From: Owenia fusiformis | Taxonomy: Eukaryota | DNA length: 64,000 nt | NCBI GenBank assembly: GCA_903813345.2 | Contig: CAIIXF020000001.1 | Coordinates: forward strand, 9,238,001-9,302,000 | Reading direction: 5' to 3' | Shown here: positions 2,484 through 63,098 of the stretch, piece by piece | Layout: each line of letters begins with the position of its first letter | Numbering within the stretch: the first letter of the stretch is position 1 | Made by a program: the position numbers and the translations under genes | Notes under the pieces: generated by a model | Told to the model about the DNA's origin: nothing | Databases searched by the model: none | The model's input: only the letters and a program-made list of their open reading frames with translations

Positions 2484-3165
2484 CTAAAAAACAAAAAACA
2501 ATTCATGTTATAATTTAATTGTTTGTTATTTAATTAAATCAAATTATAATGTTATATCTTGTTTTACTTTATTTTTCCCAACAGAGATGTAAACATCATA
2601 GAAACTTTGATTTTTCAGAATTCAGAATTAGCTGAAATTAATGGTGAATGAGTCAGCTGTCAAAAAGTAATAAACTTGATAAAAATCATCAGTATCTATA
2701 TTTAAAGGGACGATGAAATGGCATATTTCAAATGTCAAAACTATGGAAAAAATCACTCATTCTCAGAGATTTTTGCAATTTTCATTTCTGGCCAAAGGTC
2801 TGACATGTAAATCATTTTAATGATTGATGTCTCAGACATTATCATAGAAATTAACAATTTGTCATAATTTTTCATTTTAGTGAGTGACAAAGGAAGTTTT
2901 CTTATTCAACCATTTTGCAAGGCTCCCAAAAATGTTGTAAAAAACAGAAGTCTTATTATGCATGCATTGGATCAATAGCTTCACTTTAGGTATAAATTGA
3001 GTTTTTTCAATAAATTATTGATAACATTGTTTTTCACTGCACTGTTATCAATTGATGGTTCATCTTAAGATCCCATCATCCTTCGTCCTGGGATGTCGAA
3101 AATGAACATGCTATCCCATAAATGGTACTTTTCAGACCCTAGAATAACTGGTTACATGTAGTTAC

Positions 3166-3346
3166 CCTTTAGGATCTAATAGATCGTGGACCCTTTCACA
3201 GTATATCTCCATGTAAGAAACCTCTATTTTAAATGATAAGCCAGTGTCTGTGTTGTCTGAAATCCTCTCAAAGAGATTGTCACAAAGTCTTGGAATTATT
3301 CCTTTGTCACTACGGCTGCCCATCATAGTGTAGGATTTCCCCGACC
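3166..3346 (-). CDS. KIF13: KIF13-like coding exon 6 (P-loop [10 protein letters not shown]...[20 protein letters not shown])
   Basis: ttttgcag acceptor and gtaac donor; 181 nt, phase 1 to 2; kinesin motor motifs. Confidence 0.95.
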
Positions 3347-4632
3347 CTGCAAAATACAAGGAGCGAACATTACAAGGTTGCACATTAAGTGAAACATGTT
3401 GTATTAAGAGAATTATTGACAGGGAATCACATCAGGAATGGAAATGGGAATATCAGGGGTTCAGCATTTCAGAGATAGGCAAAATGAAAACAACAGGCAA
3501 AATTATTGGAAATTATAAATTTAACATAAGAAACAGTTGCTGCACAAAACGACAGGCAATTTTGTTAAAAAAACAATCGGAGAATAATGCCTGCTACTAA
3601 TGAAAGCCCTGCACTGTACAAACAGCATAGTCTGCATATTCAAAATCATTACTTCTAAGATTTATGAGACATTACTCAACTTATTAACACACAATGAAAA
3701 AGCAATCATTCAATATCTTATGTACAGTTCTTCAACTAAATTCAATCTAAAATATTAATTTATCTGAAGAATAAAAAGTCAAGCTGGCATTATCTTAGTA
3801 AACCAAATACAGTAAAACCTGTTTAGTGGACATCTAAGCAAGTGAAATACCTCCAAAGAAAACTATATATAAAGGACAGGTACCCAAATTAACTCAATTT
3901 GTATTGTAACAATAATGTAAAAAAAAGAGCCTCCGTAAGTAGAACACTTTTCAATATTTAATGAGCCGCTGTAAGTAGAACACCTCCCAAGTGATGAAAC
4001 ACCTTTTAAATAAAACCTCTGTAACTGGAACATCTCCCACATAGAACACCTTTTTGATTAAATGTATTCCACTTTGCATTCACCATAATATGAACATTAC
4101 AGAAATGATATATTAGGGGTAAGTCTCAATCAATTGTAACATAAGATTATTTCACCCAGATGAGAGATAATGAGGGATTAGAGAAAAATATGAGACTACA
4201 ATTACAGACTTCGGTTTTCAGACAATAACTGTCCCCATTGAAGGTTATTTTTCTCAGTTAAGAGGTTATTGTGATTCGCAATGTTAAAATAACAGGATAT
4301 AAGCAAGTAAAAGGATACCATAAGAGGACACAATATGTTGCGTAATATGATAGTGACTGGAGAAAAACAAATGAATTTCATATTATAATAATTATTATAT
4401 ATAATATATTCACACATGCGAGTATATTTGTATATGAAAAAGTGAACAAAATGTATTTATTATAATGCATGTATTATTAGGTAATACATAAAAGTAAGTT
4501 TGATTACATGAATGTATATCAGATAAAATTTATTACAAAATGTCAGATATCAAGATATGAAATCTAAGATAAGATATGAAATCCTAGCAGTTTGAAGATA
4601 TTTTAATAATATTTATTGGGTTGATCAAGAGC

Positions 4633-4717: not shown

Positions 4718-5349
4718 ATCAAGAATATGTTCAAAAATGTCAGTTTTCCATTTCTGAACTCATAAATCTCAAGATTAGTTTAACTTTCATTGAGTCATTG
4801 TTGGGCCAAAAGTCATACAGGTTATACGAGAATTAGTTGTGAAAGGAATAAATAAAGAGAGGCCGCTTGCAGAGTGCCTCCCAATTACTACAGTACATTT
4901 ATAATACTATATGGTTAATCCTATAGAAGATGGACCACCAAGGAGTAGGTGGAATCAAGCGTAGAAACATCATTAGATTTAATCCTCACAATGAGACTGT
5001 GAATAAATAAGACTGACGAGTGCCTCCACATCGTTGATTAGAAAAAACGGATTTAAGTGCATGATATTAGCAAATCCAATCATCAGGAATTGTGTTTACG
5101 AACCATTGATCGTAGAAATTCCATCAATATCCCATCAGATTTTATCAACGCTAAACACATTTTTGCAATCAATGTAACATGTACTTTTAAAATGTGTTTG
5201 TAAGATTCATGTACTTATGACATGTGATTTCAGCAAGTAAAATATGATAGGGTAGGAATCAAATCTCTGATTATCCTATTGGTTCTTTCCGAGGGGGGGG
5301 GGTAGTACAATAAGTCGAATGTTGAAAGGGTTGATCATTTCAAACTTAC

Positions 5350-5442
5350 CAGTTTGTCCATATGCGAATATACATGCATTATAGCCTTCAAACGCCCTCT
5401 GAAGTACATCTTTCCCAAGACAATTGTAAACTTGTTCTTGAC
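5350..5442 (-). CDS. KIF13: KIF13-like coding exon 5 ([31 protein letters not shown])
   Basis: tttatag acceptor and gtaagt donor; 93 nt; [13 protein letters not shown] motif. Confidence 0.95.
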
Positions 5443-6350
5443 CTATAAATGCAAAAAATCTCATTGTACTGCACATGTACAGGTGTACACTACAAATGCA
5501 GGTATACAGTAGTTCACATAGATGTAGATAAACTTTGAATTAACAATTATTTTCTTGCAGGTTTCCCAAGATTTTTGAAAAAGGTTGGGCTAAATCCCTT
5601 TTGACAAAATGTTGAAAAAATCCTTAAAAGTTGATTGATTCTTTAATGCATGTCATGTTTTCTTGGAGTAATGCATCAGACTGAATTATTCAATTCTGAT
5701 AGATACACTTCAATGGAATTTGCCACAGAGATACCATTCTGTCCTCATAATTTCATACTAGCCAGTCTATTACCACATAGGCAGCGAATAATGTGTTTCC
5801 ATATTCTATACCTTGAAAGGTGTCACGAGGACAATATTATAGATTAAATAATTACAGCACTATTTATATCTCAGAAAGGGTTATTAGAGAAAATATAAGT
5901 ATGGGTTATAGTTCTGTAAATATTAAAAGGTCATAGTAGTATGTCGGGTAAACCAGGTTCCTGTAATTAAGCCCTATATTTGAACATGGTGCGGTAGAAT
6001 AACATATTACTTAATAGGAATAAGTGAAGTTTTTATAGATGAAGTTATTTAATTGTTTCTGAGAATTTTTTCTATCAAAGGTTAAGATACTTCAACCTCA
6101 TTTATTTAACAGGAACGGGAACATCTAACAGGAATGAAATGGAGACATTTAATTGATGTTACACAATAATCAAAATCATTTTTCTCTTTAATTGAGTATT
6201 TAAGGTGAATGTTGAATTAAATGATGAATTAGGACTTCTTACATGTTTCATGCTATTGTAATGTATAAACAGGTCCAAAATCATCACACTTTACCTTCTT
6301 TAAAATAAAGGCACATCCTCATTCTCTAAAAGTAGTTAATTTAAACTCAC

Positions 6351-43620: not shown

Positions 43621-43728
43621 GCCTTCTTCAATGCTGCCACCTATTAACAGTATTTTTTCTTCCACTATGTTCATATTCACAACTTTTTATATTGGTGAAC
43701 TTTATCTAATATCTTGAAATAATTTCAG

Positions 43729-43893
43729 GTGCGAAATGAGTTCTATACGGATACCCAGGGTGCAATCTTAGTGTTTGATGTTGGCAACACAGGGAGCTTT
43801 GAATCCCTCGAGTTATGGTTGAACGAGATGAAGTCAAATCTCACAAACCCTGCAGAAATGGAAAACATCAACTTTGTAGTATGTGCAAATAAG
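43729..43893 (+). CDS. DNAJC27: DNAJC27 exon 4 (VRNEFYTDTQGAILVFDVG...FVVCANK)
   Basis: tttcag acceptor and gtgtgt donor; 165 nt. Confidence 0.95.
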
Positions 43894-44861
43894 GTGTGTT
43901 TTAATGCTCTTTCTCAAATTGCTATATTGCCATCTTCTTATGCTGGTGATTGTTCAATTTTATATCTGAGTGGGTTGGTGGGCACATGAATCTCATCATC
44001 AAATCGCTTGAATTTTTCTCTAAAAAGTCTTTATAATGCTAGAACATTATTTCCATCAAACTTTTATCTATATCTATTATTCTGGAAAGAAGGATAGTCC
44101 TGTATGATCTTTTTATATATTATTTTCATGTCATATTAAAGGGGGGGGGCGTTGTCAATATGTTTCAAATGGGACATAGAATATATGTATTCTTTCTGAC
44201 AATGTTCCAAATATACATGGCGCTGCTCAACCCTCTGTGAATCAAGTCTCCTCTTTGATCTCTTTTTGGTGTAGGCTTGATACAAGACCAAGTTCATATT
44301 GTCCATCCAATTTCATTTATATTTGACAGGCCTGTGCACTATGTGTATTGAACATCTGCCTGAATGCTAATTAAATCCTCAAAATAACTCCTTATTTCAA
44401 AGTAGCTGTCATTTTTGCTAACATTGTATAAGCCACAAGTTTATTTGACTTTGTTCCTGCCCAACAGGATTAGGCCTATGTCATTTTTCATTTTTTAATT
44501 GTGACTGAACATAACCTATTACTTTATATAACCTTTATCAGATTTAGTTCAAAAGACATAAGCATTATGTTTATCGTGAGGTGGGACTTTCTACACCATG
44601 TAGCATTGTTCCTCATCTCGTATCCTGTTGGTCATATAGTTTTGATATTTCATTGTTTTCCTTGGTGATTAGATTTTATGTAAGACTCCATACACTCTAG
44701 AGTGGTGTATTATATAACATTGCTCATCAAAGCTTTGACAAAAACTCATAAACTTCTTATCAAAAGTTATCATCAATATGACAAATTAATAGAACCTTTT
44801 TTCTTTTGATCCCATTTTATTTCAATACATTTTTTGTTCTTGGTTTGAGTTTTTTGTCACC

Positions 44862-47101: not shown

Positions 47102-49336
47102 TTAGGAGGAGTGAATATGTATGTGCTTATGTCTTCTTAACACGAACTTGGCTGAAAATGCCTTAGAGCATATGTTACATTTATAAGGTTTCTCACCAGT
47201 ATGGGACCGTTTATGATCAGAGAATTCTCCTTGTGTGACATAGGCTTTCGAACATAGCTCACATTTGAACGGTCTCTCTTCAGTATGGACTCGCTTATGA
47301 TGCATTTTTAGAGTATGCCTATGGGTAAAGTCTCTAGAACAAACCTCACATGTATATCTTTTTTCTCCTGTGTGAATGAGATTGTGAGCTTTAAGATTAG
47401 CATTCTGAGAGAATGTTTTTGAACAGACCAAACATTTATATGGCTTTTCTCCAGTATGAATTCTGATATGTGTAATAACATCAAAACTACGAGCAAATGA
47501 TTTAAGACAAACTTTACATTTGAATTTCTTTTCTCCAGTATGAGTGGTTCTGTGTGAGTTACGTGCAGAACTATCTGTAAATGTTTTTGAACAGAAATCA
47601 CATTTAAATGGTTTTTCTCCAGTATGGATTCGGCTATGTACTTTCAAGTTTGATTTATTGGAAAGTATTTTTAAGCATACCTTGCATTTTATTTTTGCAT
47701 TTCCAGTGTGTCTCATACTATGTGTAGTTAGGCTGGATTTATGTTTGAATGATATGTAGCACACCTTACATTCAAATGGTCGTTCACTACTGTGAATTCT
47801 TTTGTGTTTTGACAGATCCCCATTGGTAGAAAATGCTTTAAAACAAATACTACATTTGTGTGACTTCTCTCCAGTATGGATTAAGGTATGACAAGCAAGG
47901 GAAGAAAATACAGCAAACATTTTACCACATCTATTACATTTATAGGGTCTTTCTCCGGTATGAATTCTATTATGTACATTAAGTGTACTCCTAGTACGAA
48001 ATGCCTTAAGACATACTTTACATTTAAATCTTTTCTCTCCAATGTGACTTTGCATATGCACACTTAGATCTCTCTTGAATGGAAATTTCTTGGAACAGGT
48101 ATTACATTTAAAAGGTTTCTCGTTAGTATGCCTTTCGACATGTCTGACAAGGTCTTGTTTTACTTTAAATCGTTTGGAACAAATCTGACATTTGAAATGC
48201 TTTTCATCCGTGTGATAGCCAATATGTGTAGCAAGTACATGCTTCATATGAAATGCCTTGCCACAGATGTCACACTTGAATTTTTTTTCTCCGTGAATTA
48301 TATTATGCGTATAGAGAGATGCATTATTTGCAAACACCTTTGAACATATTTCACATGATACTCTCTTATGCTTTGAAGCATCAGCGCTTCCACCTGTCTT
48401 TGTAAGCTTTTTTGGTTTTTGATTTTTTACAATTTTTACAGGGAGTTTGTTAATTTGTAGATCATCATCTTTTATGCAGAATCTGAATTGGTTGTGTCTA
48501 TATTTCAGTTTTGAGACATCTTTTTCAGTTAATCTACATAATGATACTGTACATGGTTTCTCTTTAATTAAGGTACTAGACTCAGATGCTTGAATAGTTT
48601 TTGACTGGAACAATTCTTTATATAGAGATGCTTCTTTCCTTGAATGCATTGCAAGTGACATTTCTTCATTAGATTGAAAAGAATCATTCTGATCAATGTC
48701 AGTAGCGTTATTAACTGTAGGACTATATGGGCTCTCTCTTACATGTTGGTTCCTTGATTTCTCTTTGGTCGTATTTGAGGTTCTTATATGGGAACAACCT
48801 GCACACTGGTGATGTAGCATTTGTGAAATGTCTTTTTCAGTTAATCTACATAATGACACTGTACATGATTTCTCTGTGATTGGGCCATTTGCCTCAGATG
48901 TTAGAATTGATTTAGATTGGAGAAGTTCTTTATGAACAGATGATTCTTTCCCTGAATTTTTCACAGGTGACACTTCTTCATTGGTTTGAAAAGTATTGTT
49001 TTGATCCATATCATCAGTGTTATTAATGTCATCAGTAGATCTAGTAGAACTAGATATGCTCACTTTTAAGTGTTGGTTCCTTGATTTCTCTTCGGTCGTA
49101 TTTGAGGTTCTTATATGGGAACTACCTGCACACTGGTGATGTGGCATTTGTGAAATGTCTTTTTCAGTTAATCTACATAATGACACTGTACATGATTTCT
49201 CTGTGATTGGGCCATTTGCCTCAGATGCTACAATTGATTTAGATTGGAGTGGTTCTTTATTAACAGACAATTCTTTCCCTGAATTTTTCACAAGTGACAT
49301 TTCTTCATTGGTTTGAAAAGTATTGTTTTGATCCAT
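47102..49336 (-). CDS. Nested C2H2 zinc-finger gene, copy A: 744-aa ORF with 15 tandem fingers after a repeated low-complexity region; starts at an internal Met
   Basis: CxxC...HxxxH repeats with TGEKP-type linkers; ORF uninterrupted; the homologous upstream part is disabled. Confidence 0.85.
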   Translation of the reverse strand: MDQNNTFQTNEEMSLVKNSGKELSVNKEPLQSKSIVASEANGPITEKSCTVSLCRLTEKDISQMPHHQCAGSSHIRTSNTTEEKSRNQHLKVSISSSTRSTDDINNTDDMDQNNTFQTNEEVSPVKNSGKESSVHKELLQSKSILTSEANGPITEKSCTVSLCRLTEKDISQMLHHQCAGCSHIRTSNTTKEKSRNQHVRESPYSPTVNNATDIDQNDSFQSNEEMSLAMHSRKEASLYKELFQSKTIQASESSTLIKEKPCTVSLCRLTEKDVSKLKYRHNQFRFCIKDDDLQINKLPVKIVKNQKPKKLTKTGGSADASKHKRVSCEICSKVFANNASLYTHNIIHGEKKFKCDICGKAFHMKHVLATHIGYHTDEKHFKCQICSKRFKVKQDLVRHVERHTNEKPFKCNTCSKKFPFKRDLSVHMQSHIGEKRFKCKVCLKAFRTRSTLNVHNRIHTGERPYKCNRCGKMFAVFSSLACHTLIHTGEKSHKCSICFKAFSTNGDLSKHKRIHSSERPFECKVCYISFKHKSSLTTHSMRHTGNAKIKCKVCLKILSNKSNLKVHSRIHTGEKPFKCDFCSKTFTDSSARNSHRTTHTGEKKFKCKVCLKSFARSFDVITHIRIHTGEKPYKCLVCSKTFSQNANLKAHNLIHTGEKRYTCEVCSRDFTHRHTLKMHHKRVHTEERPFKCELCSKAYVTQGEFSDHKRSHTGEKPYKCNICSKAFSAKFVLRRHKHIHIHSS

Positions 49337-49420
49337 ATCATCAGTTGCAGTAATTTCATCAGTAGAAACTAGATATGCTCTCTTTTAAGTGTTGGTTCCT
49401 TGATTTCTCTTTGGTCACAT
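48530..49420 (-). repeat. Coding tandem repeat in zinc-finger copy A: about 3 units of ~320 bp (first period 327 bp = 109 aa)
   Basis: MDQNNTFQTNEE at 49336 and 49009; a third diverged unit IDQNDSFQSNEE; only one unit in copy B. Confidence 0.9.
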
Positions 49421-50320
49421 TTGATTTTCTTTTATAGTTTTTCATTTTTGTTTCAAAGTTTAACTTTGCTTGTTCCATATCTTTTTTACTTTCCTGTATT
49501 AGTGGACATAACAGCGGATCTTGATCAGGCACAAATTGTTTAGAATCAATTCTGGCCAGTTCCTCCTTTATACATGTAGATTCTGAAGTGGAGGATATTC
49601 CTTACTCTTGTGTGTTTTTTGATAATTCTTCCGTGATGCACTTTGGCTCATCGTGGACTACAACAGTTTTGTCTGAAGCAATCTGATATGAAGAATTTGT
49701 TTCAGCCATCTGCTGTAAAAAATAAAAATCATGTGTCACTGATATTTTGAAAGTTAAAACTTAAAATTATCACTAGGCCTCTAGGAAGACCAGTTTTGTA
49801 CTGTTAGAGCTACCCAGAATAAATATACATGTAGTTTCATATCAAATCAAATGAAAACACTTATAATCACTCAACGATACATACCTACTTCGATACATAC
49901 TTTTTTGTCAGTAAATGTTGCAATTTGTAAACTTTCCTCATAAAGTGATTCAATAGCTCTATAAAGATCCAATACTTTAATACTTGAACAAGGCTCATGG
50001 TGAACAATATCAATTTAAACTTACACAAATAACAACATGTTCGCTAGTATCAACATAAAATAGGTTATATAAAATTATATCATTGCTAGTTGAAATATTC
50101 CCTAGCGGGTCTAGCGAATACATACTAAAACAGACATCAGCACATCTTTTCTAGTTTTCTCAAAAAGTGCCATTTGGCTAATGCATTTTGAAAGCTTATT
50201 AATATTTTTTCACAAAAAAAGATGAAAGAGCAAGACTCACATACCAGTCCCATTCCTGTTGACTTCACTGTTAGACATTTCTTTAGTTGTAGACTTCTCT
50301 GAAGAATCCATGCTTAAAAT
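49337..50320 (-). pseudogene. Disabled 5' coding part of zinc-finger copy A (small exon 50245..50320 and start of large exon from 49712)
   Basis: Aligns to the intact N-terminus of copy B, but has an 8-nt deletion after the acceptor, an in-frame TAA at 49602..49604 and a frameshift near 49367. Confidence 0.8.
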
Positions 50321-50744: not shown

Positions 50745-51831
50745 CGAGGGGTGATCAATAAGTAATGGACGCTTTTTTACACAGATACTTTTTATAGACC
50801 AATCCCTTTGATTTTCCTACCAGTGATACATCATTCAATTATCTATCATTTCTGAGGATTTGAAGACAAAATATAAAATACATGTTGATATATCTTTATT
50901 TCCTTGAAGGAGGTACAGGTACCCCGGGACCGACATTTATGTCACATATTCAGTTTTCAGCCAGTTTGGCAAATTTCAGTTAGATTTAAACTTTCCATAT
51001 GCAACATGTGTTATGTTGTTTGAAATACTTGCTGACTGGTCAACACATAAGCAGAAAATTTAGTGATGTCAGAGTGTTGTATGGAAGGGGTTTGCAGGTC
51101 AATTTGAGAAAGCATTGTGGAAGAAAGGGGTGGTGAGAGAAGGGAACACCCTACTCCATATGGACATTGCACCTGCCCACAGATCTCAAAATGTTCAGAA
51201 AACAATTTCCCTGGACCTCAAAATTGAGCCCTTGGCCAATGCACCCATATTGTCCAGATCTGCTCACATGTGCCTTATTTATTTCTATACTACTTATTTC
51301 TATAGAGAAAGGATGCATGTTTATTGATATTGATGAAATAAAACAACCCGTGCAACTGCATCTTGCTACCATGTCAGAGAATGGATTCAGCCTTGTCTCA
51401 CAATCTTGAATTAAGAGGATGAGGAATTGTGTACATGTAGCACTTGATGGAACCTATGTAGAGGGCTCTGTGGAATGAATGTGGCATGAATACCACATAG
51501 TGATGATAAAATATTCAAAATCAACTATGGGATAACAAAATGGGGTAATTCATGACCATAATGGTTTGTTTTGTTCAGCCTGCATTCAACTGCATTGCAT
51601 GTAAAACAAGCTAAAATAGCTTCAGAATGTTTGACGTAAATGTCGGTCCCGGGGTACCCATACATCCTTCACAGAAATAAAGATATATCAAAAGATATTA
51701 CATGTTTTGTTTTCAAATCTTCAGAGTTGATAGATAATTGAATGATGTATCACTGGTAAGAAAATCGAAGGGATTGGTCTATAAAAAGCATCTGTGTAAA
51801 AAAGCGTCCATTACTTATTGATCACCCCTCG
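50745..51831 (+). mobile_element. Internally deleted mariner element with long (~200 bp) TIRs and a transposase C-terminal remnant
   Basis: TA TSD; CGAGGGGTGATCAATAAGTAATG TIR; frameshifted LHMDIAPAHRS...PYCPDLLTC matching mariner HDNAPAH / PYSPDLAP motifs. Confidence 0.9.
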
Positions 51832-56715: not shown

Positions 56716-58854
56716 TCAGGAGGAGTGAATGTGTATGTGCTTATGTCTTCTTAACCTGACCTTAGCTGAAAATGCCTTAGAGCATATGTTACATTTATAA
56801 GGTTTCTCACCAGTATGGGACCGTTTATGATCAGAGAATTCTCCTTGTGTGACATAGGCTTTAGGGCATAGCTCACATTTGAATGGTCTCTCTTCAGTAT
56901 GGATTCGCAGATGATGTAGTTTTAGAGAATGAGAGTGGGAAAAGTCTCTTGAACAAACCTTACATGTATATCTTTTTTCTCCTGTGTGAATTCGATTGTG
57001 ACTTTTAAGACTACTATTTTGAGAGAATCTTTTAGAACAGATCAAACATTTATATGGCTTTTCTCCAGTATGAATTCTGATATGTGTAATAACATCAGAA
57101 CTACGAGCAAATGATTTAAAACAAACTTTACACTTGAATTTCTTTTCTCCAGTATGAGTGGTTCTGTGTGGGTTACATGCAGATCTGTCTGTAAATGTTT
57201 TTGGACAGAAATCACATTTAAATGGTTTTTCTCCAGTATGGATTCGGCTATGTAATTTCAAGCTTGCTTTACTGGAAAGTATTTTTAAGCATACCTCACA
57301 TTTTATTTTTGCATTTCCAGTATGTCTCATACATTGTGAAGATAGGGTGGAACTGCGGTTGAATGTTTTGTAGCACACATTACATTCAAAGGGTCATTCA
57401 CTACTGTGAATTATTTTGTGTTTTGATAGATCCCCACTTGTAGAAAATGCTTTATAACAAATACTACATTTGTGCAACTTCTCCCCAGTATGGCTTAAAG
57501 CATGACTAGAAAGACCATAATATGCTGAAAATGTTTTACCACATGTATTACATTTATATGGTCTTTCTCCAGTATGAATTCTGTTATGTATATTAAGATG
57601 ATTTCTTATATGAAATGCCCTAAGACATACTTTACATTCAAATCTTTTCTCTCTTTTGTGAAATTGCATATGTAAAGCAAGTACATCCTTTCTATGGAAT
57701 ACCTTGCCACAGATATCACATTTGAATTTTTTCTCCATGAATTCTACTATGCAGCAGTGTATGCTCACGGAGTGATGCATTATTTGCAAGTACCTTTGAA
57801 CATATTTCACATGATCTGTTTCTTTTCTCTCCAGTGTGAATTTGCATATGTTTAATAAGATAAATCTTTAATGAAAATGCCTTGGAGCAGATATTACATT
57901 TAAAAGGTTTCTCATTAGTGTGTGTTTTGAAATGTCTGATAAGAAGATATTCTAATTTAAATGGTTTGAAACATATCTGACATTTGAAATGCCTTTCCTC
58001 ACTGTGATAACCCATATGTATAGCAAGTCCATCCTTCCTATGGAATGCCTTGCCACAGATTTCACATTTTAATTTTTTTTCTCCATGAATAATATTATGC
58101 TTATGGAGTGATGCATTATTTGCAAACACCTTTGAACATATTTCACATGATACTCTCTTATGCTTTAAAGCATCAGCGCTTCCACCTGTCTTTGTAAGCT
58201 TTTTTTGTTTTTGATTTTTTACAATTTTTACAGGGAGTTTGTTAATTTGTAGATCATCGTCTTTTATGCAGAATCTGAATTGGTTGTGTCTATATTTCAG
58301 TTTTGAGACATCTTTTTCAGTTAATCTACATAATGATACTGTACATGATTTCTCCGTGATTGGGGCATTTGCTTCAGATTTTGATTTCAATTGGAGTAGT
58401 TCTTTACATAAAGATGATTCTTTCCCTGAATTTATCACAAGTGACATTTCTTCATTGCTTTGAAAATCATCGTTTTGATCATTGTCAGCAGTGGTATTAA
58501 TTCCATCAGTAGACATTGTAGAACTAGAGCTGCTCTCTTTTACATGTCGAGTCCTTGATCGCTCATTGGTCACATTTGACAGTTTGGTTTCACAGTACAA
58601 CTTTTCTTGTTCTATATCTTTTTTACTTTCTTGTTTTAGTGGACATAAGAGAGGATCTTGATCAGGCGTGCATTGTTTGGAATTAATTGCCAACTCCTCT
58701 TCTATACATGTAGCCTCTGAAGTAGAGGATGTTCCGAACTCTTGTGTATTGTTTGATAGCTGTTCAATGATGTAACTTGGTTCATTGTGGACCACAAACG
58801 CTGTGTCTGAAGCACTTGGATGTAAAGTATCAATTGAAGCCATTGGTTGATCTA
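56716..58854 (-). pseudogene. Nested C2H2 zinc-finger gene, copy B, large exon: 17 finger units, disrupted
   Basis: Paralog of copy A; frameshift in an A-run at ~57727..57732; TGA at 57394..57396 where copy A has CGA; tttttacag acceptor. Confidence 0.85.
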
Positions 58855-59217
58855 CTGTAAAAATCAAAATCTTGTGCCTATTTCTGATCTCAATCAATAT
58901 ATTTCGATACACACTTTTTTGTCGGTAAATGTATTTTGTAGTAAATCTTCATCACAAAGTGAATTAATGGCCATTTAAAGACAAGAAAATGTGCATCCAT
59001 ATCTTTAATCACTTTGCTCGCAAGATGCAAGCTCATTAATATTTGTATTGAAAAAGTAGGTTTATATCAGATTTTATTCATGGTACAAAGAAAATAACAG
59101 GCGTTAGACTGTTCATGTTTTGAGGTTAATGTTAAAGATATATCTGCACATCTATTCAATTTTTCTCAAAAAGTGCCATTTGCCTATGCATTTTGAAAGA
59201 TTATTAATATTCCATAC

Positions 59218-59290
59218 CAGTAACTCTACCGCTGATTTCACTTTTAGACATTTCTTTGGGTGAAGACTTCTCTGTAGATGTAATGCTCAT
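59218..59290 (-). CDS. Zinc-finger copy B first coding exon (MSITSTEKSSPKEMSKSEISGRVT)
   Basis: ctttcag acceptor at 59294, ATG, G|gtatgg donor; phase 1 joins the large exon in frame (V-DQPMAS); homologous to 50245..50320. Confidence 0.75.
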
Positions 59291-60985: not shown

Positions 60986-63098
60986 CATCAATGAACACCA
61001 GTCAGCGCTCACCAGTCACCATGAATTGTGCGATTTCTTAAGACTATTTATTGTGGAATTGTTCATCAAGGAAGATCAGTTGAAGAAAAATATTCCTGTT
61101 CTTTGGACTATTTATTCAGGAGTTCAGCTCAATAGAGAGCCATCTAACAAAGGATATTTTAACCAATGCAGATTGAATGAAGAAAAATTTTCCTGGTTTT
61201 ACTGTATGTAATCATTTATTGGATTTTGAGCTGAAGAATGAACAAATCTGCTTGAAAACATTTCACATTAAGAATGTGATGAAATGTATCTTCCAGTCAT
61301 ATAAATTATAATCCATCCACAGTATATCCGTCCAAACTCTAAACTGTATGGGATATACATGTATGTCTTGCATCAAATTCCTGACCCCTACTTTCAATAT
61401 TTCTTGCATGATTGACAAGAAATTTGGAGGGTGGGAAGGCAGGTGCTGGATGCAAGATTATGGAATATCTCTCTTAGAACTACTATGATCTCATATTTCT
61501 TAAAATGCTACCTCTGCTATGTAGTATGTAGTATATTTTACACCTGTAATATGTAGTTAACTATTTTACATGTATGTTGGTTTATTTTATACACTTCCAT
61601 ATTATAATAATACATATATATATATCACATCAGCTTTGATTAATGTTCCCCCTTGCCATTCATAGTATAATACATGTACACAGGTTATATATATTTTGCA
61701 AGTGGATCCAAGAGACCAATTGTGCGAGTCCATTATTTTGCAGGGGTGACAGGATACACACATTCAATATTGTATATAATAGTGAATTCCCAGCGAGTGA
61801 TTTCAGTACAGTAAAACTGTCATAATGAACACCTCTTTAGTTTAGTTCTGTACCCAGTGAACACATGAGTCTACTCAATTGAACACCTGTGTATAGTGAA
61901 CACCGATTCCCAGCCAGTGATTTCAGTACAGTTAAAACTGTTATAATGAACGCCTCTTTCTTGGTGAATATCTGTGGCTAGTGAACACATGCGTCTACTC
62001 TATTGGACACCTGTGTATAGGGAAGGGTCACCCATTCCCAGCCAGTGATTTCAATACAGTAAAACCTGTCATATTGAAAACATCTCTGTGCACTTGTATA
62101 GAACATCTTTTGCACCACATGGTTGCAAAGCTAGAAGCTAGCTTTTGCTATATTTCATTTAATTTGGATGGAACAAATGTCTTTTCTTTTTATCATAATG
62201 TCAAATTACATTTTTAGAGGCAGACAATCGATTAATGGAAATTGGAATGTGTGTATCTTGTCACCCCTGTAAAATAATGGACTCGCCCACTTGGTCTCTT
62301 GGATCCACTTGCAAAACATATAACCATGTACTTGTGATGTATAATATAACTTATAATATTAAAAAATGGTTTCCAATTCTTGAATGCAATACATGTAATC
62401 GCATAATCCTCCAATATAAGAATGTTCCTTTAAAGTGGCAGCAAAGAATTGTGAGTTTAAAATGTTGGAACCAACATTTTCAAGAAGCAGACAAATGTTT
62501 CCATTATAATCCTAATTTATTATCTGAACAAGAGTTGAGATATTTTAAAAAACATTTGAGCAAAAACCTATTGTAAAATTCCAATAATTCACTAGCTTCA
62601 ACTAGCTTCTATTCTTTGTTATCTCTTTAATCATGACTCAGTTACAGTGCCAATCCTTCTTTTTCATATTCATATATTGAAAAAAAGCTTTTATATTTTG
62701 TTTTTATTGCTGGGGTGTTGTGACACTGAATTGTGATGTGATACATTAAAAGTTTACCCTTATGAGGGACGACTGTTTTTAAGAGCCTTAAGAATCTGCT
62801 CAAATGTCTCAACAAAGGAAGCAAAGCCTTACACAAATGGTACAGCCATTCTTGGAAATTTAACCTTTTTTAGTAAGAACACAACAAAGTTTATTAAAGA
62901 CTAGCATCACTATGATGATCTTGTACCTGGGTATTTAGACAACACATTACTATGAGGCTAAACACTTCTATGGTATTATATTTTTGGCAACTCTGAAAAT
63001 GAAAAGAATATGCTACTAAAACACTAGTGAAGTTGCATACAAGCAAAAGAATACCCTCTTTGGTTGTTAGATATATTTACCACATGTTGTGTCAGTCT

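Follow-up and report, generated by a model that had tools for sequence, protein, structure and literature searches.

Tetrapod genomes contain hundreds of KRAB genes; how the multi-finger proteins of invertebrates that possess neither a KRAB nor a ZAD domain repress their targets is, to our knowledge, mostly unknown. The question is raised by a 64,000 nucleotide (nt) stretch of the Owenia fusiformis genome (contig CAIIXF020000001.1, positions 9,238,001 to 9,302,000), here termed the window, in whose coordinates positions are given. Its minus strand carries two paralogous multi-finger genes, copies A and B, approximately 9.6 kb apart. Ahead of their zinc fingers, both encode a 15-residue block, EK(S/P)CTVSLCRLTEKD, which includes the pentamer CTVSL. 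An earlier interpretation, made from the sequence alone and hereafter the sequence-only reading, took this block to be a candidate HP1-docking site. Does its near-perfect repetition mark such a function, or is it a product of how the locus was copied?

The account favoured on balance is that of a tandem pair of KRAB-less poly-C2H2 genes, both of them damaged, in which the sameness of the block is mostly a matter of history and the block itself is a putative docking motif. In a gene that appears so far to occur only in the annelid O. fusiformis, this would plausibly amount to an ordinary young zinc-finger pair with a putative HP1-docking motif.

The repeated block and the region around it

Copy A has three instances of the block and copy B a single one, each within a unit of 327 bp (109 codons) of which copy B has just one (Table 1). 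When CTVSLCRLTEKD was back-translated into a degenerate nucleotide sequence, four sites were matched without mismatches, all on the minus strand (48518-48553, 48830-48865 and 49157-49192 in copy A, and 58310-58345 in copy B), and none of 100 shuffles produced a match. Across the four units, the sole amino acid difference in the 15 residues is the S/P alternation at position 3. The sequence-only reading had described a block repeated in three units of copy A and one of copy B that was otherwise invariant, and this description was correct; the position it gave for copy B (58321..58350) falls within the block at 58310-58354.

Downstream lie arrays of tandem C2H2 fingers (PF00096/PF13465), with C-X2-C-X12-H-X3-5-H spacing and TGEKP-like linkers. 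In copy A, both Pfam (zf-C2H2, E = 3.2e-52) and a regular expression count 15 fingers. Copy B (56716-58948) has the same layout as copy A, but its array is split between three frame pieces (57716-58948, 57394-57867 and 56716-57393), the first of which includes five zf-C2H2 stretches according to Pfam.

No known effector domain precedes the fingers. At E <= 1, Pfam detected no KRAB (PF01352), ZAD, SCAN or BTB domain in the proteins P0001, from copy A, and P0002, from copy B, nor any family in their N-terminal halves, C2H2-type families being confined to the finger arrays; four 53-residue segments around the motifs returned no family at E <= 10. This bears out the sequence-only reading, which had recognised none of these four domains. 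A search of PDB sequences with a 225-residue N-terminal region found no match at E <= 10, and a protein Atlas search gave no usable match. That the N-terminal region is coding is indicated by its 341 codons staying open where the frequency of stop triplets is 0.0625 (P ~3e-10). Its composition is polar (34-36% Ser/Thr/Asn/Gln and 13-15% acidic residues). An AlphaFold2 single-sequence model spanning the motif to finger 2 of copy B (135 residues) had a mean predicted local distance difference test score (pLDDT) of 42.2, with true fingers reaching only 42-70 and residues 1-93 below 50, and is too poor as a whole to count as evidence of disorder. In the favoured account, the block would act as a short linear docking motif within an effector region that is probably disordered.

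Copying history and constraint on the block

For most of their length, copies A and B share 78-87% identity, distributed as a mosaic. One tract of approximately 265 bp, which starts at the motif, spans the linker and reaches into finger 1, is identical at 57-60 of every 60 positions per window, as against 37-49 just upstream and 45-52 downstream. Its synonymous divergence (dS) is 0.058 (three synonymous differences in 53.8 sites), compared with 0.361 for the 85 codons that follow and 0.602 upstream, where unit 3 is set against copy B. Since selection at the protein level would have left synonymous differences in place, this tract is attributed to gene conversion between the copies. Within copy A, units 1 and 2 do not differ inside the motif and share 91% identity upstream of it, as against 73-81% for the other pairs of units; these two units are recent duplicates. 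As a consequence of conversion and recent duplication, only two independent lineages exist at the block, one comprising units 1 and 2 and the other unit 3 and copy B, and the invariance of the block is mostly copying history. The locus is chiefly a small, clear illustration of how unequal crossing-over and gene conversion can make a short peptide appear 'invariant'.

Further tracts of 96-100% identity between the copies were observed in the finger arrays (47154-47243 / 56768-56857 and 47424-47633 / 57038-57247), flanked by sequence that is 75-85% identical, with dS per 30-codon window ranging from 0 to 0.47, a pattern suggestive of conversion having acted on the arrays more than once.

The sequence-only reading had itself reckoned with the identity being fully explained by recent duplication and conversion. 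These processes explain it largely, through the tract shared by unit 3 and copy B and the recent origin of units 1 and 2, but not wholly, as is evident when the two lineages are compared. They differ at two or three of the 45 nt of the block, comprising two synonymous changes and the S/P difference. Between copy B and units 1 and 2, the 15 codons include two synonymous and no non-synonymous changes where the upstream rate predicts 6.4 of the latter (Poisson P = 0.0017, uncorrected); for units 2 and 3, two synonymous changes stand beside one non-synonymous change where 8.1 of the latter are predicted (Poisson P = 0.0027, uncorrected). The block's dS of 0.25 is the background rate of synonymous differences, and the remainder of the unit is almost unconstrained, with dN/dS (the ratio of non-synonymous to synonymous divergence) between 0.44 and 1.0. 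The block is, as previously claimed, more conserved than most of its 327 bp unit: between unit 2 and copy B it is the best-conserved 45 nt window, with 43 of 45 positions identical against 186 of 235 (79%) upstream (binomial P = 0.002, uncorrected).

Three points temper this evidence. A window at the beginning of the unit is no less conserved when units 2 and 3 are compared (44/45, as against 42/45 for the block); the 45 nt window was picked after the data had been inspected; and Fisher tests of non-synonymous against synonymous changes were not significant (P = 0.077 and 0.22). Some constraint on the peptide is nevertheless likely, the one old comparison being suggestive without amounting to proof.

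The strongest alternative denies the block any function: duplication, and conversion between A and B in a decaying pair, would have kept it uniform, and its resemblance to a docking consensus, described below, would be due to chance. That the block effectively represents two lineages, the near-free evolution of the remainder of the unit, the Fisher tests and the equally conserved window are all consistent with this, as are the stops or frame shifts in both copies and the finger of copy B that has lost a histidine. Set against it are the combination of a background dS with 0-1 non-synonymous changes where 6-8 are expected, the 760 open codons and 15 intact fingers of copy A, and the presence of two distinct consensus matches within 231 residues, for which P is ~0.002 relative to real zinc-finger proteins. 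It is regarded as a serious contender, albeit an unlikely one.

Two matches to an HP1-binding consensus

The motif was compared with the 14-position consensus for binding of Drosophila HP1a, as printed in the Methods of PMC12526061, which was written as a regular expression. Pentamers of the PxVxL class occur in the worm genes as C-T-V-S-L, four times, and as L-P-V-K-I, once per gene. According to the same source, CxVxL is among the known variants, cysteine being accepted at position -2 and isoleucine at +2. All four CTVSL blocks satisfy 14 of the 14 printed positions. The second match, LQINKLPVKIVKNQ, was missed by the sequence-only reading; it is present in both genes 31 residues downstream of the block, has LPVKI as its core, and adjoins a lysine-rich stretch that is followed by finger 1. 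The matches are located at residues 60, 169, 273 and 309 of P0001 and residues 197 and 233 of P0002.

Such matches are infrequent in comparable sequence. Composition-preserving shuffles yielded 0.055 matches per 134 residues, and 20 occurred in the 67,041 residues outside the fingers of 120 other multi-finger proteins, with 18 of these proteins having at least one match and two having two or more. At that rate, a sequence of 231 residues would hold two or more matches with a Poisson probability of 0.0023. LPVKI is the more independent piece of evidence, because it was not used in forming the HP1 hypothesis (0.04 matches expected per 134 residues). The longer consensus is also a far better discriminator of candidates than the xVxL pentamer by itself.

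The two sites differ in their surroundings. HP1a ligands are described in PMC12526061 as having three to six basic residues interlaced between positions -4 and +4, with an emphasis on electrostatics. LPVKI has three basic residues in this interval, and its 25-mer has seven lysines and arginines to three acidic residues, a net charge of +4. From these features, LPVKI would be the stronger candidate for HP1 docking.

A number of points weigh against docking to HP1. CTVSL has only two basic residues between -4 and +4, and its 25-mers have three or four basic residues to four acidic ones, a net charge of approximately 0 to -1; given the emphasis on electrostatics, this near-neutrality predicts weak binding. 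The expanded pentamer, taken by itself, is reported to match more than 50% of the Drosophila proteome (PMC12526061), and the full consensus is permissive and was derived for Drosophila HP1a, not for an annelid HP1. In ZNF518B, a canonical N-terminal PxVxL is described as dispensable (PMC11754734). The lysines that flank LPVKI could be no more than a nuclear localisation signal. No orthologue of the N-terminal region was found in protein or metagenome searches, hence no conservation over time is shown, and the exon models, lesions and unit number all come from one assembly.

The classification of CxVxL as an HP1-type motif stands as regards its fit to the 14 positions and the acceptability of cysteine at -2; it is weakened by the lack of specificity of the bare pentamer and by the missing basic cluster. 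It is possible, if still tentative, that at least one of CTVSL and LPVKI binds HP1. The HP1 chromoshadow dimer would be the leading single candidate for the partner of the block in particular, although that assignment is doubtful. What the locus offers in practice is two defined peptides as candidates for HP1 docking.

Alternatively, the block may be a constrained dock for some other partner, such as another co-repressor or a modifying enzyme, with LPVKI and the lysine patch serving nuclear import only. The hint of constraint and the polar, probably disordered composition would suit such a role, and the lysine-rich stretch, KKLTKTGGSADASKHKR, resembles a bipartite nuclear localisation signal. 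However, the block was not recognised as belonging to any other known motif class, and the full consensus matches at two sites would then be a coincidence, making this proposal rather unlikely.

The extent of the family and the state of the two genes

The sequence-only reading went beyond the motif itself in envisaging a lineage-specific repressor family, functionally analogous to KRAB-KAP1, in which CTVSL would be the HP1 dock and the triplication of the unit would raise the valency and the silencing strength of copy A. Searches for relatives do not support a family. HMMER, queried with the 225-residue N-terminal region of copy B, found one match at E <= 0.001 among 1,835,955,588 representative proteins: P0003 (NCBI CAH1772838.1, 'unnamed protein product, partial [Owenia fusiformis]', 301 residues). 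Searches of 90% clusters scored none of 139 candidates and, on the second occasion, one of 395, which was P0003 again; a metagenome scan with an alignment of the four units matched a pattern in 141 stretches, none of which was confirmed. When the finger array was used instead (P0001 residues 335-760), 7718 of the 8000 scored candidates had E <= 1e-20, but the best 120 listed were generic multi-finger proteins of 34-49% identity, none named Owenia, so that this search yielded no close paralogue with an N-terminus that could be inspected.

P0003 is copy A itself, with two units instead of three. Its first 32 residues are identical to the frame that precedes unit 1 in the window, and its last 278 to P0001 from residue 99, exactly one unit being skipped; in this two-unit form the frame is uninterrupted from an ATG at 49478. 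A canonical intron that would yield P0003 from the window was considered and rejected, as the join would have to fall in a 30 nt stretch common to units 1 and 2 in which there is no GT. P0003 therefore stems from a sequence with two units or from a non-canonical gene model, and the difference from the window could be a polymorphism, an assembly difference or such a model. A change from three units to two is what would be expected from unequal crossing-over. With the sole relative being the same gene, and the window holding just two finger genes, there is no family on the evidence of the protein and metagenome searches and of the window, only a tandem pair.

Both members of the pair carry frame-breaking lesions in this haplotype (Table 1). 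Relative to copy B, copy A has three: the in-frame TAA, an 8 nt gap at the start of the main exon and, separately, an 8 nt deletion in unit 1 that brings the upstream frame to an end. The long frame of copy A can then begin only at an internal ATG (49336-49334), continuing to the stop codon at 47102-47104. Copy B likewise has three: the additional 178 nt, after which its first frame piece ends at a TGA (57716-57718) next to a short run of A; the TGA at 57394-57396; and the loss of a histidine from one finger. The frame shift at the run of A (near 57716-57735) could be an assembly error; such an explanation is less likely for the substitutions. With its open 760-codon frame, copy A is probably still functional, while copy B has probably become a pseudogene or a truncated form. 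Lesions in both copies imply that there is no family-wide 'system'.

These lesions also affect the proposed triplication, which is real to the extent that a tandem array with a period of 327 bp and 2.9 copies was detected, but which includes a first unit with an 8 nt deletion and is reduced to two units in the public protein. Higher motif valency in copy A is doubtful for the same reasons, unit 1 being out of frame with the upstream starts. The vision of a KRAB-KAP1-like family docking HP1 through CTVSL can draw on the complete consensus match and the listing of CxVxL as a variant (PMC12526061), on the second site nearby and the low background rate of matches, and on precedents for proteins with several HP1-binding motifs: either of two is reported to be needed in HP5 (PMC12526061), and three have been reported in SUV420H2 (PMC11163940). 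Nonetheless, it is improbable, given the absence of a family from the protein searches and the presence of only two such genes in the window, the severing of unit 1 from the upstream starts and the two-unit public record, the lack of a basic cluster around CTVSL, the origin of most of the identity in conversion and duplication, and the lesions in both genes. What survives of the sequence-only reading overall is the absence of an effector domain, the conserved block and its fit to the consensus; the family is unsupported and the valency doubtful.

Finally, it was considered whether the block forms the Cys-X4-Cys knuckle of a degenerate C2HC- or C2H2-like zinc module rather than an exposed linear motif. 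This idea was rejected as a leading reading and is very improbable: both cysteines are invariant and all units fit C-X4-C-X(11-13)-H-X(2-6)-[HC] (P0001 residues 65, 174 and 278), but Pfam found no family in the four segments even at E <= 10, a profile of the gene's own fingers scored them at -0.1 to -1.1 bits as against 44.2 bits for a true finger, the putative downstream His/Cys ligands lie in sequence that is unaligned between units 1/2 and unit 3/B (40-46% identity), and the AlphaFold2 model lacks a finger fold there, albeit at a confidence too low to count.

Comparison with known HP1-docking proteins

Direct docking of HP1 by KRAB-less finger proteins is already a known kind of interaction. 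The nearest described case to the pair of worm genes is Oddjob (Odj), a young, fast-evolving multi-finger protein of Drosophila with a ZAD, in which the V164A change to a PxVxL in the linker alters heterochromatic localisation (PMC7655104); it is also listed as one of six Drosophila proteins with a functional motif (PMC12526061). In both cases, as far as Odj is described in these sources, an HP1-type motif is situated in a (probably) disordered region just ahead of a finger array. The worm genes differ in having no known N-terminal domain where Odj has its ZAD, in having no known orthologue where those of Odj are described as keeping the motif across Drosophila, in the placement of the motif within a tandemly repeated unit, and in that their docking of HP1 is a prediction.

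Similar comparisons apply to the HP1a Access Codes (HACs) described by Colmenares et al. 2025 (PMC12526061), the source of the consensus that CTVSL and LPVKI fit at 14 of 14 positions. As with the HACs in that description, the surroundings of both worm sites are polar and have no known fold; however, conservation among homologues is one of the criteria given for HACs, and the worm block is conserved only among paralogues linked by conversion.

KRAB zinc-finger proteins acting with KAP1/TRIM28 resemble the worm genes in joining a fast-evolving C2H2 array to an N-terminal effector region. KAP1 is itself reported to dock HP1 via a PxVxL-type 'HP1 box' (PMC12126490). By contrast, the worm genes have no KRAB, would need no adaptor and do not form a gene family. 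Closer in this respect are the KRAB-less zinc-finger proteins ZNF518A/B and ADNP, described as docking HP1 through PxV/IxL motifs: ZNF518B is reported to bind the chromoshadow domain through PxIxL (PMC11754734), and ADNP, of the ChAHP complex, is reported as a direct HP1 partner (PMC3022755; preprint 10.1101/2024.02.05.578923). These are conserved single genes with few, dispersed fingers, whereas the worm genes are orphan tandem duplicates, and no sequence relation to ZNF518A/B or ADNP was detected in the searches of representative proteins and of the PDB.

What would be new, if HP1 docking in the worm were true, is the phylum, the orphan N-terminus and a motif residing in a repeat unit that differs in number between records; no annelid C2H2 protein with PxVxL docking of HP1 was among the literature matches listed. 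Were both sites to bind HP1, the locus would provide a spiralian instance of direct docking by a young finger gene, comparable to Oddjob and human ZNF518, in which duplication of a unit varies the number of motifs. The most far-reaching version is an HP1 recruiter private to annelids, independent of both adaptor and KRAB, with two or three CTVSL motifs plus a single, stronger LPVKI site beside the DNA-binding fingers, and a number of docking sites that varies between haplotypes. This is a speculative and improbable proposal. If true, a heterochromatin recruiter requiring neither KRAB nor adaptor would have arisen outside insects and vertebrates, and unequal crossing-over would tune the number of HP1 dimers held per DNA-bound molecule.

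Layout of the locus and neighbouring features

The features of the two genes are collected in Table 1. The first coding exons of both copies are candidates predicted from sequence, supported in the case of copy A by 82% identity with copy B.

Table 1. Positions in the window of the features of copies A and B
Feature	Position	Strand	Remarks
Copy A long open frame, P0001	47102..49384	-	760 codons; three N-terminal units, linker, 15 C2H2 fingers
Copy A finger array	47105..48361	-	15 intact C2H2 fingers, P0001 residues 342-760; Pfam and regular expression
Copy A lysine-rich stretch KKLTKTGGSADASKHKR	48362..48412	-	Directly ahead of finger 1
Copy A second consensus match LQINKLPVKIVKNQ	48419..48460	-	14-position regular expression; 3 basic residues in -4..+4
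Copy B second consensus match LQINKLPVKIVKNQ	58211..58252	-	14-position regular expression
Gene-conversion tract	A 48300..48565 / B 58092-58357	-	~265 bp, motif through linker into finger 1
Copy A N-terminal unit array	48519..49435	-	327 bp (109 codons), 2.9 copies, 83% matches; Tandem Repeats Finder
Copy A unit 1	~49094-49435	-	
Copy A unit 2	48767-49093	-	
Copy A unit 3	48461-48766	-	
Motif block EKSCTVSLCRLTEKD, copy A unit 1	49157..49201	-	
Motif block EKSCTVSLCRLTEKD, copy A unit 2	48830..48874	-	
Motif block EKPCTVSLCRLTEKD, copy A unit 3	48518..48562	-	
Motif block EKSCTVSLCRLTEKD, copy B	58310..58354	-	
8 nt deletion in copy A unit 1	49359..49367	-	Between 49367 and 49366; upstream frame stops at 49361-49359
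In-frame TAA, copy A	49602..49604	-	35 codons after ATG 49709-49707; copy B has TTC (Phe)
Copy A candidate first coding exon	50245..50311	-	ATG 50311-50309, GT donor 50244-50243
Copy B main exon	56716..58854	-	One N-terminal unit and broken array; ATG 58843-58841
Nonsense TGA within copy B finger array	57394..57396	-	Copy A has CGA (Arg)
Additional 178 nt in copy B, compared with A	57654..57831	-	Duplicate of finger 1-2 region, not a multiple of three
Copy B candidate first coding exon	59218..59290	-	Joined in frame to main exon by phase-1 GT..AG intron

Inside the putative first intron, a 71 nt block (50136-50206 / 59142-59211) is 90% identical between the loci, as against 82% for the candidate first exon; the block could represent a regulatory element or a repeat fragment. 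The window contains no finger genes beyond copies A and B, and within it the pair stands outside any large cluster of such genes. Elsewhere in the window are exons of a kinesin motor domain on the minus strand (3165-3431 and 5279-5539, E = 2.6e-20 and 3.6e-08) and a Ras-family exon on the plus strand (43723-43986, E = 2.9e-08). Open frames on the plus strand between the two copies (51067-51409) have an unconfirmed resemblance to the remnant of a mariner-type transposase, Pfam assigning them to no family at E <= 0.01. Downstream of copy B lies a tandem repeat (61786-62085) with a period of 124, 2.4 copies and 82% matches.

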